This document shows positions 16,304 to 41,964 of a stretch of 64,000 bases of DNA, piece after piece. The position numbers and the translations under genes are program-made. This DNA is from a virus, in the IMG/VR virus record IMGVR_UViG_3300024496_000030, positions 19,117-83,116 of that record; one strand, 5' to 3'. The first letter of the stretch is position 1, and each line of letters starts with the position of its first letter. The notes under the pieces were generated by a model. That model made no database searches and had not been told where the DNA came from. It saw nothing but the letters and a program-made list of their open reading frames with translations.

Positions 16304-16528
16304 ATGGAATCTTTCATCTACGAGAAGGGCAACGACGGTTATCTCGTCACCATCCGTGGTGATTTTGCAGAGATGACCAAGGTTGACCTTGACCGTCAGG
16401 TGTCCAAGTACATCCGCTTGGAGGCACCTGTCGAGCATATCCGCTCCAGTGTGAAGAAGCTGCTGCACCAGGGTTATAAGCTGAGCAATCAGCTAGAACT
16501 TGGTTGGCAGCGTTTCATCGAAGCGTAG
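16304..16528 (+). CDS. hypothetical early protein
   Basis: ORF track; stop codon abuts the ribozyme. Confidence 0.65.
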   Translation: MESFIYEKGNDGYLVTIRGDFAEMTKVDLDRQVSKYIRLEAPVEHIRSSVKKLLHQGYKLSNQLELGWQRFIEA

Positions 16529-16594
16529 GACGAAACCGGAGGGTGCTATCCGCTCCCTTCGGTCGCTCCCTGCTATGGGGAGCCTGATGAGTCC
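16528..16594 (+). ncRNA. hammerhead ribozyme, type II
   Basis: GGAC-GAAA-CCGGAGGG..CCCTTCGG-TC^-GCTCCCT..GGGGAGC-CTGATGA-GTCC: complete core, stems I-III intact, GUC cleavage after 16564. Confidence 0.88.
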
Positions 16595-16608
16595 CTGCTT
16601 TGCTCACC

Positions 16609-17460: not shown

Positions 17461-17568
17461 TCTTTTCTTTATCTTTCCAGATGTCTGCACTTTGGGATCT
17501 AGGCCTTAGCTTAGTTCCCTTTCTGCAGGCTTCACTTGCCTGCTTTGTACACCTACCTAGACAACACC

Positions 17569-18018: not shown

Positions 18019-18130
18019 GCAGAAGGTCAGTCCGACTCTTGCACTTAAACCTTCCGGGTTGGTACAGCTGTACTAGCCCGGTGGTTTTTCTGCAGGATTC
18101 ATCTCCTGCACAATCCTTTGCACATCACCA

Positions 18131-19675: not shown

Positions 19676-19710
19676 TCACACCATCTTCATTACCACTCTG
19701 CACACTCAAC

Positions 19711-20757: not shown

Positions 20758-20803
20758 CCTGAGCAGATGATCCCTATGCATCTGTTCCTTTGCTTTGCAC
20801 CCC

Positions 20804-23087: not shown

Positions 23088-23214
23088 GTCTCATCAGACT
23101 TATTACACTGTCCAACAAGAGCCGTCTGCTTCTAGCTAGTGCTTCTAAGCTATTCATGCCGTGGTCCTCCCTGTCATGGGTGTTGGATCACGGCTTCTTT
23201 TTGCACACCATCCA

Positions 23215-23873: not shown

Positions 23874-24058
23874 CCGCTTCCAGGGTTCATAAACTGATAG
23901 GAAAAACTTAAGGTTACCTACAGCTTTTCTTATCGTTCCATTGCTACGCTGGTTTGCCTACAAACCCTGTCGTAGCAATGGATTTCAGTCTTACAAGACA
24001 CTGCACTTGGATAGGTTTGTGCCCTTCATAATTAATTACCGGATGGAAAATATTTACC

Positions 24059-24226
24059 ATGGAATCCAATATGTCGCCAGCAGGAAAACTTGCCTGGGCA
24101 ATCCTTGCTCAACGTCCTGACGGCAAGAGTGAAGTCATCAAGATCACCAATCACGAAGAAGCCGATCAAGCTGTCAAAGAGAATCCCACTCTTTGGTACA
24201 AGAGCGGCCCATTCATGCTAGTTTGA
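24059..24226 (+). CDS. small hypothetical protein (55 aa)
   Basis: My translation MESNMSPAGKLAWAILAQRPDGK...; below the track cutoff. Confidence 0.5.
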   Translation: MESNMSPAGKLAWAILAQRPDGKSEVIKITNHEEADQAVKENPTLWYKSGPFMLV

Positions 24227-24281
24227 ATCCACTCCAGGACACATCCTCGTCACTGTGTCCTGGGGAATCCCCTTCATTCCA

Positions 24282-24491
24282 ATGAAACTTCCTGTGACTG
24301 CTTACATCGTCATGCTTCATCATGCTGATGTAGGTACATTTGCTCCAGCTTTCCCCAATCTTGACGACGCTATTGAGTTCTCCAATGCAATGCGCTTGGT
24401 CAACGATCAACTTGCTGTAGCTGAACCGGTGCCTTTGGTCTCCACGATGGCTCCAGGAGGAAGCAAAGTTTTAGATTGGGTCGAGCATTGA
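24282..24491 (+). CDS. hypothetical protein
   Basis: ATG 24282 in track ORF. Confidence 0.55.
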   Translation: MKLPVTAYIVMLHHADVGTFAPAFPNLDDAIEFSNAMRLVNDQLAVAEPVPLVSTMAPGGSKVLDWVEH

Positions 24492-24553
24492 TTCAACCTA
24501 ATTAAATACATAAGAATCTGTGTTATCTTGTATCGAGGTAACACAGATTTTTT

Positions 24554-24802
24554 ATGGCCGTCGTTCTATCAGTTAGTATCCCCGATGAGATGCACGCCAG
24601 GTGGAAATCATCTGGATTTGATATTAGCCCCAGTGCGATTTTCCAAAATGCTTTGGAGTCACAGCTCACTGAAACCAATCAACATCTCACCTACTGGAGC
24701 AATCGTGCCTTGTCTGCAGAAAAGAAACTAAAGACCATCGAGAAGTTACTGTCTGCTAGTGAGAAGGAGATTAAAAAATTCCTTTACTTTGAAGACATGT
24801 GA
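24554..24802 (+). CDS. ribbon-helix-helix (CcdA-like) DNA-binding protein
   Basis: LSVSIPDEMHARWK...ISPSAIFQNALE RHH pattern. Confidence 0.6.
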   Translation: MAVVLSVSIPDEMHARWKSSGFDISPSAIFQNALESQLTETNQHLTYWSNRALSAEKKLKTIEKLLSASEKEIKKFLYFEDM

Positions 24803-24867
24803 TCTTCCTAACAATTGATTGGTAACCTGTTCGGTAGACTACAATTAACAAATGCATCTGCATTTCT

Positions 24868-25050
24868 ATGCCTGACAGAGGTTACCTTTTCTTAAGCGAC
24901 GATCAGCGACTTGATGTTGCAAGCTTGCTAACAACGCTTAAAGGTCTCGGTATTGTCCGAGATGAAACAGATTTTCAAAGGTTTGTCACTGGTTGTTTCT
25001 TCCGTGGTCTTTATGATTACAAAAGAGATCTAACTCGCAGCGACTGCTGA
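24868..25050 (+). CDS. hypothetical protein
   Basis: ORF track. Confidence 0.5.
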   Translation: MPDRGYLFLSDDQRLDVASLLTTLKGLGIVRDETDFQRFVTGCFFRGLYDYKRDLTRSDC

Positions 25051-25278
25051 ACAACTAACCAAGAGAATCATTAAGACAATATAAATAATACGATAAACAA
25101 TTGAATCCATTTGATCAAGCTACCAGTACTGCTGCGTAGCTTCATTTTATTTTGCAAATAAATTTAGAAAAGCTTCTCTTGGAGAACGGCCCACCGCCAC
25201 GTAAGAATATTAGATATATACAAAGTAATAACTATACCAATAACACCTAACTAAATACATATGTACCATCCCATAGAT

Positions 25279-25356
25279 AAAAAAATGGACCGGGCACCAC
25301 CCCAGTCCAGAATCTGCTTTGCACACACAGCCTTCAGGATTCCTTTCTGAAGCTGC
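25279..25356 (-). ncRNA. candidate trans-acting small RNA (~78 nt): hairpin, seed, terminator
   Basis: GCAGCUUCAG-loop-CUGAAGGCUGU, unpaired GUGUGCAAAGCAGAUUC, UGGACUGGG-GUGGUG-CCCGGUCCA-U7; promoter TTGCGC-18-TAGACT upstream. Confidence 0.72.
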
Positions 25357-25357
25357 G

Positions 25358-25392
25358 TTGTCAGTCTAGTCAAGTCCCGCTAGTATGCGCAA
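25358..25392. promoter_or_regulatory. overlapping divergent sigma70-type promoters
   Basis: Plus: TTGTCA(25358-63)-17nt-TAGTAT(25381-86); minus: TTGCGC(25392-87)-18nt-TAGACT(25368-63). Confidence 0.6.
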
Positions 25393-25424
25393 GCAAACGG
25401 CGCAACCTCATTTGCACACCCACC

Positions 25425-25850
25425 ATGTCTCCATTTAATTTCCAGCCTGTTCAACTGCTTGAACTCTCCGACGCTGACACTCCGAGCATTGATGTGCAGG
25501 ATGGACAGCTGATCCTCACCGCTCAACGTGGTGAAGAGAAGATCCGAATCACTGCTCCTCTGCGTCAGGTTCTTCCCCAGGTGGCAGCAACAACTGTCAA
25601 GGGTCCGTCTCGATTGAAAGGGCTTCACCTACCTGGTGGCGATAAGCGTGTTGGTGAGCTGAACGGCATGGCCAAGCTCAACGAACAAGCAGTTCGTGAA
25701 ATCCGTCTCATGATCAGCGATCCGAAGTTTATCAAGAGCTTCCGCACACGCCACGCTCTCTGCTTAGAAATTGCTAAGGCTTATAACGTTCATCCCGCTA
25801 CGGTGAAGAACGTTATTGATAACGTCAGCTGGAAGCACGTCAAGATCTAA
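25425..25850 (+). CDS. DNA-binding protein with C-terminal HTH
   Basis: GELNGMAKLNEQAVREIR...IAKAYNVHPATVKNVI..SWKHV. Confidence 0.75.
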   Translation: MSPFNFQPVQLLELSDADTPSIDVQDGQLILTAQRGEEKIRITAPLRQVLPQVAATTVKGPSRLKGLHLPGGDKRVGELNGMAKLNEQAVREIRLMISDPKFIKSFRTRHALCLEIAKAYNVHPATVKNVIDNVSWKHVKI

Positions 25851-26242
25851 TGGAAAAGACTTACAGCATCTTGATCCAATTTGGTGATGGAAAGCCTGTA
25901 GCTTCTAAGATCAAAGCAAAGGATGGAGTCGATGCTCAGGACAAAGCATTACGCTTAAACCCTGGTGCACGCTCCATCCGCATCACCGGTGTCTTAGAAG
26001 TCCACCTTCCAAAGCTAAAGCCTCTTCCTAAACCAAAACCAAAGGCTGCTGTTCATCCACTCTTTACAGATGTTGATGATGCAGTGGTTACGGATTACGT
26101 TAGGAACACTTCTCCTGATGTGCGGTTACAGATTTGTCACCAGCTGCGGAAGGAAGGCCTGACCTATAAGGCCATCGCTAAACAATTGGATATGGGTGAG
26201 ACAACAGTTCGCACCTGGATCAAAAACACACTGCCCTCCTAG
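25850..26242 (+). CDS. HTH DNA-binding protein
   Basis: LRKEGLTYKAIAKQLDMGETTVRTWI. Confidence 0.75.
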   Translation: MEKTYSILIQFGDGKPVASKIKAKDGVDAQDKALRLNPGARSIRITGVLEVHLPKLKPLPKPKPKAAVHPLFTDVDDAVVTDYVRNTSPDVRLQICHQLRKEGLTYKAIAKQLDMGETTVRTWIKNTLPS

Positions 26243-26254
26243 TGAGGGCTTTTT
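26233..26254 (+). terminator. intrinsic terminator-like hairpin
   Basis: GCCCTC-CTAGT-GAGGGC-TTTTT. Confidence 0.55.
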
Positions 26255-26272
26255 CTTTGCACATTTCACACC

Positions 26273-27853
26273 ATGGAATTCCGTCTTCCCACTGAACTTG
26301 CAAACAAACTGGTTGATTATGACCAGACCCTCAAACAAATCAAACCCAAGAAGGAACCAAAAGAAGCCAGCACCAGGCTCAAGCGCAGAACAAAGCTAGC
26401 CTTCCCTTGTCCTGACATCTTCTTTGATCTCACAGTAGATGAGATCCATGAGATCTACGAAGAGTTCTGCTTTCGCCCTGCTCCGATGCGTTATCACACG
26501 GTACGCAGCAATGTAAATCCCATGCTTACTCGTTATCTCGTTGCATGGGATAAGTGTTCACAAACTAAACAAGAGATCTGGTATTGCTGGAAGGTTGGTG
26601 ATAAAGATTGTCCCATCATATTTAGAACATGGGATGAATCAGATCTAGATGATGAGTACCACGAATTCCGTGCTGATCAATCATTGAAAGCTTTAAATAA
26701 AGCTCAAGATAATCCTTTTACTGTTAGATATAAAGCAGAACAAGAACGTTATGAAGCAGTCTCTTGTTTTATATCTGCTGTCTGTAATCAAGTTGAATTG
26801 CCTGAAATCAATAGAGCTTTACATGTAACAGGTAAATTAAATATGTACGGTATTACTAAATTCTTTTATGAGATGTTTTTCTCTGCTAAAGATGAGCAAT
26901 CTTTTTATCCTGCTCAGTGGTTATCAAAACAGAGAATGCACGCTATGACTGAGTGCATGATTGATCTTAAAACAAATAGCACCATCATTAATAGTAAGTT
27001 TTACCAGAACGAAGTAAGAAAAGAAGCTAAGTGTTTAGAGGAAAAAGTATTAACTGGATATATTAATCCTCAGTCTCTTGTTCATAAACTAAGTTACATT
27101 TATTTGTTTCTTACTGTATTTCCTGATGAGTATGATCGTTCCATTAATCTTTATACTCAACTAAGTCAATATCATTTTTCTTCTCATTGGTCTACTTGGG
27201 CAATCTTTGATCGAATTACACGTGTAAGAATTGGATTTAGATCTAAATTTATGCAGTGGTTTACTTCTAAAGTTACACCACAAATGTTTATCAATTGGAT
27301 CCTTGAAGAAGTAGAAATTAAACAGAAGCGTGACTATGACACTACCATCCGCGACACAATGGAAATGTTGATTAAAGCTAGAGAACGAATTGATTACCTA
27401 AGTAATCCCAATCCTGAGTATCTCAAAAAACCTAAGCGCTGGCGTCTCCAGGAGGTTCATGATCATTACGTTGGCATCACTCTTCAGATGGATAACCAGA
27501 TGAAGAATCTACCAACAGATTTGATTCCAGAACCAATTACTTTTGAAACAGAGCTTGGAACCATCCGTATGTTCCAGCCTTCCACCAATCACGAGGTCAT
27601 CCGCTGGGGTAAAGCAGTCCGTAACTGCGTTGGTTCAGCTGGCTATGACGAGCGAGTGCTCAAGCGCAGCGCTTTCCTTGTGTTTGCTGAACGCAACGAG
27701 AAGCCATGGCTAACCTCTTTGCTTACCCTCAACATGGGGATGCTCCACGTGGGACAGACGGTCTCACCGTTCAATGCCAACCTAGAACCTGGTGAGCGCC
27801 AGGTGTATGAGCGGTGTTTACAGCAAGCCATTGGTATTACTGAGCAACAGTAA
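26273..27853 (+). CDS. PcfJ-like domain protein
   Basis: C-terminal EVHD...WGKAVRNCVGSAGY...N pattern. Confidence 0.6.
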   Translation: MEFRLPTELANKLVDYDQTLKQIKPKKEPKEASTRLKRRTKLAFPCPDIFFDLTVDEIHEIYEEFCFRPAPMRYHTVRSNVNPMLTRYLVAWDKCSQTKQEIWYCWKVGDKDCPIIFRTWDESDLDDEYHEFRADQSLKALNKAQDNPFTVRYKAEQERYEAVSCFISAVCNQVELPEINRALHVTGKLNMYGITKFFYEMFFSAKDEQSFYPAQWLSKQRMHAMTECMIDLKTNSTIINSKFYQNEVRKEAKCLEEKVLTGYINPQSLVHKLSYIYLFLTVFPDEYDRSINLYTQLSQYHFSSHWSTWAIFDRITRVRIGFRSKFMQWFTSKVTPQMFINWILEEVEIKQKRDYDTTIRDTMEMLIKARERIDYLSNPNPEYLKKPKRWRLQEVHDHYVGITLQMDNQMKNLPTDLIPEPITFETELGTIRMFQPSTNHEVIRWGKAVRNCVGSAGYDERVLKRSAFLVFAERNEKPWLTSLLTLNMGMLHVGQTVSPFNANLEPGERQVYERCLQQAIGITEQQ

Positions 27854-29865: not shown

Positions 29866-29951
29866 AAGATAAAGTATAAAGATTAATAACATTTAATTAC
29901 CTGGGCACCGCAAGGGTAAGTCCCAGCTTTGTTGTATTTGCACACACCACG

Positions 29952-41011: not shown

Positions 41012-41067
41012 CCTTCTAGACCTGGAGTAAGTCTTAAAACTGCTCCTGCACACACCACCTGACCGTA

Positions 41068-41940
41068 ATGACCGTAACCGAAGCGCTGCTTTCCGATGCT
41101 CAGCGTCTTGTGTATGGACGCAGAAGAATTATTGACACGCTCTATCAAGAAGATCCAGATAAGTTCAAAGTTTTACAGGCTACTGATATTCAATCCATCT
41201 CACTCCAGGATGATTTGGTTTGTCTGGATCTAGCAGACACCCAACTCTATATAGAGCGGGCAAAAATCCTCAAAAATTTTTGGGAGCACCGCACGCGTAC
41301 CCCTTCCTACTTTGATTACAAGGTCTGGAGCCAGGCATTGAGCAGCCGCCCCTGGCAAGGAACACCTGTTGCAGCCTTGGATTACGGTCCGTCCCAAGCA
41401 ATTGATGCGCTGGAGCCTTTGCTGGGACGCCCGCCTCGAATTCAAACGGATCGTGATGGAGTACAGAAGTTGTACTTTGTTATGGAGAAAGAAGAAATGT
41501 GCAGCTGTGAATCATGGAATCAAATGCATGTTCACAGGCATGAACTTTCTGATGAGTTCTCTACTTATACCGACATAAAATTCAAGCCTATTTGTAAGCA
41601 TTTACAATGGTGTTCTGCCAACATGTTGCTTCATGCAATTCGGTTTGAATCCAGGCAGAACGATAAAGAATATAACCCAAGAATCTGTGTCTACTATTTT
41701 GATCATCGTCGCGGTTTGTTACTGTATCGCGTTACTTATGACGGTGTAAAAACAGGTGGTCAGTGGCTACCTGTTGGTGGGTGGAAAGAAAAAGCTGTCT
41801 ATGACAGCAACCACATGCCAACCGGAGCTTGCTGGCAAACCTTCACCGATGCTTTAACTCAAGATCCTCCCTTCAAACTATCGCCCTATTCCCATAGCCT
41901 GGGTGCTCTGATGAATAGCACCTGCTCTAAACAGTCCTGA
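41068..41940 (+). CDS. SWIM-type zinc finger protein
   Basis: CSC...CKH. Confidence 0.65.
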   Translation: MTVTEALLSDAQRLVYGRRRIIDTLYQEDPDKFKVLQATDIQSISLQDDLVCLDLADTQLYIERAKILKNFWEHRTRTPSYFDYKVWSQALSSRPWQGTPVAALDYGPSQAIDALEPLLGRPPRIQTDRDGVQKLYFVMEKEEMCSCESWNQMHVHRHELSDEFSTYTDIKFKPICKHLQWCSANMLLHAIRFESRQNDKEYNPRICVYYFDHRRGLLLYRVTYDGVKTGGQWLPVGGWKEKAVYDSNHMPTGACWQTFTDALTQDPPFKLSPYSHSLGALMNSTCSKQS

Positions 41941-41964
41941 TTGCACACCACCGCATTACTCACC

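Follow-up and report, generated by a model that had tools for sequence, protein, structure and literature searches.

The timing of phage gene expression is usually attributed to promoters, sigma factors and a small number of proteins that repress translation. RNA-based control of phage immunity is known from the c4 RNA of phages P1 and P7 and the CI RNA of P4, antisense RNAs in which a short exposed sequence pairs with more than one site on phage transcripts. These RNAs are processed from the operon that they control and address two sites close by, ahead of a single gene or operon, and the c4 RNA and its sites differ together between P1 and P7, thereby setting immunity specificity. Among bacterial RNAs, cyanobacterial Yfr1 carries a C/A-rich motif, ACUCCUCACAC, and the G/U-rich region R1 of enterobacterial GcvB is said, after work by Sharma et al. 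in 2007, to pair with C/A-rich leader elements.

GcvB represses a multi-gene regulon (PMC4474525, PMC9299463). Phage-encoded trans-acting sRNAs are also known, for example VpdS, DicF and P22 sar (reviewed in PMC12197685), and VpdS of vibriophage VP882 has been reported to act on transcripts of phage and host alike (PMC12197685; bioRxiv 10.1101/2024.10.31.621285). Cyanophage S-PM2 encodes CfrI, a cis-antisense RNA of ~225 nt at psbA (PMC12197685). In the literature on phage sRNAs we found no report of a common motif on the leaders of ~10 early genes, nor any report of seed-leader co-variation across lineages.

Here we follow up a sequence-only reading of the window, the 64-kb stretch of phage DNA analyzed throughout, which had proposed a small trans-acting RNA whose seed matches the leaders of at least 11 phage genes. 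From comparison with related loci, a widespread freshwater phage group appears to address ~10 early genes with one tiny RNA by means of a shared leader code. This RNA, encoded by the phage itself, probably acts as a master regulator of translation for the early genes, with its accumulation, its pairing in vivo and its repressive effect all inferred from sequence.

Genome context and leader styles

The window was taken from a single virus record of 83,116 bp in total, estimated to be 97% complete. Structural genes, including those for terminase, lysozyme and tail-fibre-like proteins, lie on the minus strand and have SD-like leaders. The early and replication genes occupy the plus strand at ~15-49 kb, have C/A-rich leaders without SD, and comprise family A DNA polymerase, Prim-Pol/D5 primase-helicase, thyX, SSB, Gam-like, ArdC-N/metallopeptidase-like and PcfJ-like genes. 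Looking at leader styles across the genome, we observed that the minus-strand structural genes mostly use an SD of the AGGA/GGAG type and that the SD-less leaders of the plus-strand early genes are C-rich, often with CACC just before the ATG.

The closest isolate is Synechococcus phage S-EIV1, to whose primase that of the window phage is 36% identical over 98% of its length. A DNA search against isolated phages returned similarity to thyX only, and the related loci used below originate from lake and river metagenomes. The window phage is an uncultured freshwater phage and a distant relative of S-EIV1; its host is not established, and the S-EIV1-like lineage is probably one of cyanophages.

A conserved small RNA gene on the minus strand

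The putative sRNA gene is transcribed divergently from a gene for a 141-aa protein, and the elements of the locus are as follows (window positions).

25279 to 25358, minus strand: sRNA gene; predicted transcript of ~77-80 nt, its start inferred at ~25356-25358 without transcript data
25387 to 25392, minus strand: -35 box TTGCGC of the sRNA promoter, read from the sequence
25363 to 25368, minus strand: -10 box TAGACT of the sRNA promoter, with an 18-nt spacer from the -35 box
25328 to 25355, minus strand: 5' hairpin with 9 modelled pairs and one bulge (9-11 bp in the fold)
25310 to 25327, minus strand: unpaired linker or seed region UGUGUGCAAAGCAGAUUC, unpaired in both the MFE structure and the covariance-model consensus
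25320 to 25326, minus strand: GUGUGCA, the invariant core within the linker, from the homologue alignment
25286 to 25309, minus strand: terminator hairpin of 9 bp with a GC-rich stem in the fold and the conserved loop GUGGUG (25295-25300)
25279 to 25285, minus strand: U7 tail of the intrinsic terminator, a T-run in nearly all homologues
25358 to 25386, plus strand: divergent promoter TTGTCA-17-TAGTAT of the 141-aa gene operon, from a promoter scan

The promoter TTGCGC-18-TAGACT, the 5' hairpin, the unpaired linker and the 9-bp terminator with its U7 tail are all found on the minus strand where the sequence-only reading had placed them, and the phage sRNA does have the hairpin-seed-terminator layout that had been likened to that of Yfr1. 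The predicted fold has an MFE of -33 kcal/mol (z = -2.5). Rfam at the gathering score identified only two tRNAs in the whole window and no family that covers the sRNA, and a search of the sRNA stretch with E values up to 10 gave McaS as its best match, whose score of 16.4 bits falls short of the threshold of 42 (E = 3.7).

An exact 16-mer scan for relatives returned one true relative and three chance matches, and a search with the PcfJ-like protein found none. Loci were gathered via the adjacent 141-aa protein, for which 55 homologues were collected, and via the DNA polymerase; all of them carry the sRNA element at the same place and in the same orientation. A covariance model, R1, built from nine close sequences, yields one match per locus in ~54 distinct related contigs, on the minus strand throughout and divergent from the 141-aa gene, and this pattern persists where the 141-aa homologue is only ~30% identical. 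The whole genome of the window phage contains a single match to the model, at 109 bits.

RNAalifold returned no structure on a plain MAFFT alignment, because helices of differing length are misaligned in it, and the covariance-model alignment was used instead. In the latter, 94.9% of cells pair and double compensatory changes occur in 17 of 18 pairs; none of 500 shuffles reaches this, and partner-sliding controls stay at or below 55%. Each of the nine modelled pairs of the 5' hairpin shows compensatory double changes across homologues, as do eight of the nine pairs of the terminator stem, where 99.1% of cells pair. Numerous U-G and G-U pairs in the terminator stem would turn into C-A and A-C mismatches if the plus strand were the RNA, which assigns the structure to the minus-strand RNA.

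Sequence conservation extends beyond the helices. The promoter, as TTGnnn-N16-19-TAnnnT, is retained at a constant distance in 50 of 54 distinct homologues, with a spacer that is mostly 18 and inner box bases that vary. Located between the two covarying helices, GTGTGCA (GUGUGCA in the RNA) is invariant in 39 aligned homologues, and the most conserved bases of the intergenic region coincide exactly with the unpaired linker of the minus-strand RNA. The terminator loop is conserved in sequence too, as GUGGU(G/A). In S-EIV1 the sRNA was not found, and the leader motif is absent at its starts. On this comparative evidence, the predicted sRNA gene is real and represents a new family without an Rfam match.

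In three variants (L025:2529-2614, L043:478-577 and L153:3617-3704), the -10 box ends 6 nt ahead of the seed. The corresponding RNAs are predicted to have no 5' hairpin and would begin with the seed, which leaves seed and terminator as the constant core. A coding function for the sRNA stretch was considered and rejected, given the stop in the upstream frame of the window and the G-U-type covariation that the helices retain.

Parts of 24000-27000 are contained in RNA-library contigs from 22 riverine metatranscriptome runs, and in four of these runs the contigs are only 2-5x deep (e.g. 25109-25376 and 25307-25720) and reveal neither strand nor ends. The hexamer of the sRNA -10 box, TAGACT, occurs 15 times genome-wide, nine times in intergenic sequence, with copies at window positions 24835, 38978, 39289(-), 39325, 39986, 40007, 40847 and 4301(-). 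Several of these are grouped at ~39-41 kb, ahead of GTG-start genes, and the copies probably constitute a promoter class.

Neighborhood of the RNA gene

The plus-strand promoter of the 141-aa gene operon overlaps the sRNA promoter back to back, sharing the same ~35 bp, and in relatives its GCTAnnnT element and -35 box are conserved. The leader site of the 141-aa gene falls at about +18 from the predicted start and, together with the seed region, forms a 19-nt direct repeat in which 15 of 19 positions agree. The gene at 25425 had been taken to encode an HTH protein, for which we found no support: neither Pfam, run on 27 homologues, nor a PDB profile search found an HTH or Mor domain in the 141-aa protein, and the HTH that Pfam does detect belongs to the next gene, the HTH_23/sigma-70-region-4-like gene of the same operon (25850-26242). 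The name 'Mor family' for the 141-aa protein was likewise discarded, as it is merely the source label on one 40%-identical homologue.

In the relatives P0001, P0002, P0009, P0011 and P0012, the called ORF is 196-198 aa long, with ~55 codons added upstream. This extension traverses the promoter region and the sRNA gene, where a stop and a frame difference occur in the window, and is likely an annotation artefact that arises because the conserved RNA gene is stop-free. The annotation is corrected here for the neighboring ORF, which some gene callers had extended by 55 codons through the RNA gene.

Another highly conserved non-coding block, 25178-25270, lies ~80-110 nt past the sRNA terminator. 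Its first part, 25178-25206, resembles a plus-strand promoter, TTGGAG-17-TAAGAA(T), with TTTACA in other lineages, and is followed by AT-rich repeats of the ATAGATA type. The spacer of this promoter-like block is unusually conserved and GC-rich, GGCC(C/G)CCGCCA(C/G)G, with a core that is unique in the window. As the promoter-like block is directed into the sRNA gene, it could yield a long antisense leader; alternatively, the block 25178-25270 could be an origin or an operator. A plus-strand intrinsic terminator at 25114-25152, which comes after a 60-aa ORF (24868-25050), consists of the stem GCTAC/GTAGC and then a T-rich run, and shows compensatory stem changes, GCCG/CGGC, in relative L004. 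On the other side of the locus, the PcfJ-like gene (26273-27853) is missing in the syntenic relative L004/L086, in which window position 26260 is joined to ~27849, and is present in L085 and L025. Its patchy presence indicates that it behaves as an insertion/deletion cassette, one that brings its own motif-bearing leader, directly after a terminator.

A leader motif complementary to the seed

The following plus-strand leader sites match the predicted seed, and all 11, together with their ATGs, are present as the sequence-only reading had listed them.

16595 to 16607, plus strand: leader site CTGCTTTGCTCAC (ATG 16609), 9-nt perfect match, duplex -20.7 kcal/mol
17540 to 17552, plus strand: leader site CTGCTTTGTACAC of the ssb-like gene (ATG 17569); the ssb leaders of relatives keep G[CT]ACAC
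18116 to 18125, plus strand: leader site CTTTGCACAT (ATG 18131), sequence match
19696 to 19705, plus strand: leader site CTCTGCACAC (ATG 19711), motif present in the L087, L021 and L024 orthologues
20789 to 20800, plus strand: leader site TTTGCTTTGCAC (ATG 20804), 10-nt perfect match
23199 to 23208, plus strand: leader site TTTTGCACAC (ATG 23215), conserved in L087, L013, L016, L021, L022 and L024
25411 to 25419, plus strand: leader site of the 141-aa gene (ATG 25425), sequence match
26255 to 26264, plus strand: leader site CTTTGCACAT of the PcfJ-like gene (ATG 26273), right after a plus-strand terminator at 26233-26249
29937 to 29947, plus strand: leader site TTTGCACACAC of the ArdC-N/metallopeptidase-like gene (ATG 29952), 11-nt perfect match, conserved at orthologues
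41047 to 41055, plus strand: leader site TGCACACAC (ATG 41068), duplex -22.2 to -24.7 kcal/mol
41941 to 41948, plus strand: leader site TTGCACAC of the Gam-like gene (ATG 41965), sequence match

Several of the ATGs associated with these sites are not the earliest possible start of their ORF. Rfam found no hammerhead in 16528-16594, which abuts the site at 16595, either at the gathering score or with E values up to 10.

Across the whole window the 9-mer is not enriched (21 observed against 24.6 expected). It is strongly skewed to the plus strand, and of its 16 copies there, 10 precede a start codon by no more than 30 nt. Shuffled and internal sequences had been proposed as controls for the sites, and enrichment is found over both. 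With dinucleotide-preserving shuffles of each leader serving as the control for the C/A-rich background, 11 leaders show Watson-Crick complementarity of 7 nt or more to the linker, compared with 4.4 ± 2.0 shuffled leaders; for the early plus-strand genes there are 9 such leaders against 2.7 ± 1.6, and in not one of 300 shuffles is the number as high as that observed. Unbiased 6-mer enrichment in leaders likewise recovers pieces of GCTTTGCACACC. Duplexes of -17 kcal/mol or lower are predicted at 11% of early start regions as opposed to 1.9% of internal coding controls, and the start regions of late genes show no enrichment of low duplex energies.

The energies taken as a whole are less discriminating: early start regions as a set are only marginally shifted in duplex energy (Mann-Whitney p = 0.06), and in a genome-wide ranking the proposed sites (-18 to -22 kcal/mol) are not distinct from many matches in coding regions. 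The proposal that deviations from the motif are mostly G-U wobbles also finds no support, as complementarity with G-U pairs allowed is not enriched in leaders (19 against 16.6 expected), and the variant counts are mixed, the non-wobble variant TGCTCAC being as enriched as some wobble variants.

In 28 sRNA-bearing loci, 45 of 109 plus-strand cases of TGCACAC lie within 30 nt upstream of an ATG, start regions making up 6.7% of bases, and in 46 unrelated phage loci none of 45 cases, counting both strands, falls in a start region. GCACAC is several-fold commoner on the plus than on the minus strand in most sRNA-bearing loci, and about half of its plus-strand copies precede an ATG-ORF. The leader of the 141-aa gene retains GCACAC(AC) in every lineage, 5-22 nt from the ATG, a variable spacing that argues against an SD-like element dependent on spacing. 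The motif is conserved, again at varying distance to the ATG, at the orthologous ssb, ArdC-like and 141-aa leaders. Judged by these comparisons, the leader motif is real and clade-specific.

CACCAC(C), the complement of the terminator loop, often comes after the motif in leaders. In genomes with a GGUGGUG loop, 31-36% of the occurrences of the loop complement are in start regions, compared with 11-15% for other C/A-rich hexamers, and in genomes with a GUGGUA loop no start-region enrichment of the loop complement is seen. The terminator loop may be a second contact site.

Other identities of the motif were tried and rejected. A PeSL-like stem-loop and early-promoter cassette, as in T4-type phages, was set aside since 10 of the 11 sites are without a sigma-70-type promoter; only the 25411 site (1/11) has TTGnnn-N16-19-TAnnnT within 90 nt upstream. 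The motif was also not accepted as a promoter of a phage RNA polymerase, as no RNA-polymerase domain turned up among those large ORFs that were searched with Pfam.

Joint change of seed and leaders across lineages

A further test that had been put forward was whether seed and sites show compensatory change in relatives, and such change is seen in L155, L160 and L159. We compared every sRNA linker from 24 genomes with the start regions of each genome, using a double-centred score. Cognate matching exceeds non-cognate matching to a degree reached by 0 of 20000 permutations, and likewise when 15 lineage representatives are used. The signal comes from the lineages with an altered seed. L155 has the seed UGUGUGCGUGUGUG and leaders with CACGCACAC(A), and L160 has the seed UAGUGUGUUGUGUGU and leaders with CACACAACA or ACACACTA. 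L159 carries GCAAAGGAU as its seed, and one of its leaders, at the orthologue of the gene starting at 41068, reads ATCCTTTGCAC, matching the L159 seed.

A further orthologous case is the L155 Gam-like gene (70% aa identity), whose leader has a 14-nt match to the L155 seed with a predicted duplex of -28.4 kcal/mol, against -10.9 to -15.8 kcal/mol with non-cognate seeds. A different pattern is found in L095, where a dozen leaders match differing sub-segments of the linker (TTGCTTT, CTTTGCAC and TGCACACAC). The match is lost in some orthologous leaders, for example the Gam-like leaders of L153, L159 and L164. Seed and leaders change together, including at orthologous genes; a shared protein reader is not ruled out by this alone.

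Proposed mechanism and alternative explanations

We favor, as likely though well short of secure, a base-pairing sRNA that pairs inside the 30S footprint of SD-less, C/A-rich leaders and reduces translation from a set of early genes, the divergent regulator operon among them. Host RNA polymerase would start the sRNA at its sigma-70-type promoter and stop at the intrinsic terminator, after which the exposed G/U-rich linker GUGUGUGCAAAGCAG would pair with the C/A-rich motif (CTGC)TTTGCACAC, located 1-25 nt upstream of the start codons of ~10 SD-less early genes. The predicted targets include the ssb-like, Gam-like, ArdC/metallopeptidase-like and PcfJ-like genes as well as the adjacent 141-aa gene. 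Pairing this near the start codon should block 30S binding and thereby reduce early-gene translation coordinately, and the overlapping divergent promoters may add a mutually exclusive transcriptional switch. Most likely the sRNA acts like GcvB, as a repressor that base-pairs with early mRNAs of its own phage; repression is inferred from the position of the sites near start codons. The earlier proposal that the sRNA regulates early leaders is supported comparatively with regard to seed-leader pairing; its repressive part remains an inference, and there is no direct evidence of a discrete transcript.

Much of the same evidence could be arranged differently if the sRNA were real and acted locally, by cis-antisense pairing or by promoter interference on the adjacent regulator operon, and the leaders elsewhere simply shared a cis-element, a reading we think unlikely and yet have to reckon with. 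The TTTGCACAC leaders would then be translation enhancers or sites of a phage RNA- or DNA-binding protein (in the protein-reader form, UUUGCACAC as RNA or TTTGCACAC as DNA), and the seed would match them only because one copy of the element sits inside the sRNA gene. At the locus itself, the sRNA promoter would exclude the overlapping plus-strand promoter, and the sRNA would be fully complementary to plus-strand read-through from the promoter-like block at 25178-25206. The conservation of the overlapping divergent promoters suits such a local role, as do the strongly conserved plus-strand promoter-like block, whose GC-rich spacer accompanies an orientation into the sRNA gene, and the HTH protein among the neighboring genes. 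Most sites in one genome align in a single register, so that a fixed-core protein site is not excluded, and concerted change of all plus-strand copies would be expected with one co-evolving protein as well. However, the copy in the gap falls within the linker left unpaired in the minus-strand RNA, where on the plus strand no ORF that a leader element could serve follows within 90 nt, and the variants without a hairpin retain just the seed and the terminator. The sites elsewhere stand 1-25 nt from ATGs at variable spacing, within operons and away from promoters, and the L095 leaders match different sub-segments of the linker, points that count against the local reading.

It is highly doubtful, in our estimation, that the main targets are host transcripts, whether C/A-rich leaders of host mRNAs or a host sRNA for which the phage RNA would be a sponge, and that the phage-leader matches are secondary or merely tune the system; the host, as noted, is not established. 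Known phage sRNAs do often act on host mRNAs (PMC12197685), and the seed is extremely conserved across lineages that differ in their sets of phage leaders, yet host targets would leave unexplained why the complement is enriched at phage start codons specifically in this clade, and why the motif changes in step with the seed. Next to no credence remains for chance, that is, for an intergenic hairpin and terminator without RNA function beside a compositional C/A bias in leaders. What could be cited for it is the lack of window-wide enrichment of the 9-mer and the unremarkable energy ranking, but it is contradicted by the conserved promoter, the invariant seed, the covariation in both helices, the enrichment over dinucleotide-shuffled leaders and the absence of the motif from starts in the 46 control loci (0/45 cases). 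Helix covariation, control loci and the co-variation permutations have already effectively refuted this reading.

Base pairing of the sRNA with early leaders could also be elaborated into a lineage-specific RNA 'address code', in which the sRNA silences or licenses only those genomes that bear the same code. We consider this extension quite improbable. Because seed and leaders change together (window TTTGCACAC, L155 CACGCACAC, L160 CACACAACA), the RNA would act on same-code genomes only. If the address code is true, relatives infecting the same cell would exclude one another, or be heteroimmune, by means of RNA, much as P1 and P7 are through c4, except that the code would extend across the entire early regulon of a phage that appears to be lytic and would be tied to the mutually exclusive divergent-promoter switch with the regulator operon.

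Significance and comparison with known systems

If confirmed, repression of early genes by the base-pairing sRNA would give the S-EIV1-like, probably cyanophage, lineage its first regulatory sRNA family of the seed type and would be a clean natural case of co-evolution between an sRNA and its regulon. It would also supply ready-made orthogonal sRNA-leader pairs for studying the translation and control of SD-less, C/A-rich leaders. The sequence-only reading had known of no described example of the element. That statement is too broad, as phage trans-acting sRNAs are known, although none was found to govern ~10 of a phage's own early-gene leaders. The literature searched offered no precedent, in this lineage of phages, for a conserved self-regulon whose code co-evolves.

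The present sRNA shares with cyanobacterial Yfr1 a stem-loop, a conserved unpaired motif and a terminator stem-loop within ~60-80 nt. In contrast to the phage RNA, Yfr1 is chromosomal, and its C/A-rich motif is opposite in sense to the G/U-rich phage seed; no Rfam match links them. CfrI resembles the present RNA as a non-coding regulatory RNA from a cyanophage, but is neither a short RNA of the seed type nor one whose targets are dispersed. VpdS, lambda PreS and DicF are base-pairing sRNAs that are encoded in phage genomes and act on several mRNAs, as proposed for the present RNA, although they belong to temperate phages or prophages of Hfq-using proteobacteria and have no sequence in common with the RNA described here.

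The c4 and CI RNAs offer a phage parallel, since the joint difference of RNA and sites between P1 and P7 mirrors the seed-leader co-variation of the present sRNA. Unlike them, it has its own conserved promoter and sites that are spread over ~25 kb (16.6 to 42 kb) and ~10 genes, and no lysogeny genes were identified in its phage. GcvB offers a parallel in targeting, with a single-stranded G/U-rich seed directed against C/A-rich sequences in or near the ribosome-binding region of many mRNAs, and with its own promoter and intrinsic terminator. GcvB differs in having no similarity of sequence or model to the phage sRNA (Rfam, E up to 10), and the present RNA is phage-encoded, much smaller (~78 nt) and predicted to target the phage's own early genes. 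Belonging to none of these families, the present sRNA would, by analogy, work on C/A-rich leaders in the manner of GcvB and at the same time in the manner of the c4 and CI RNAs.
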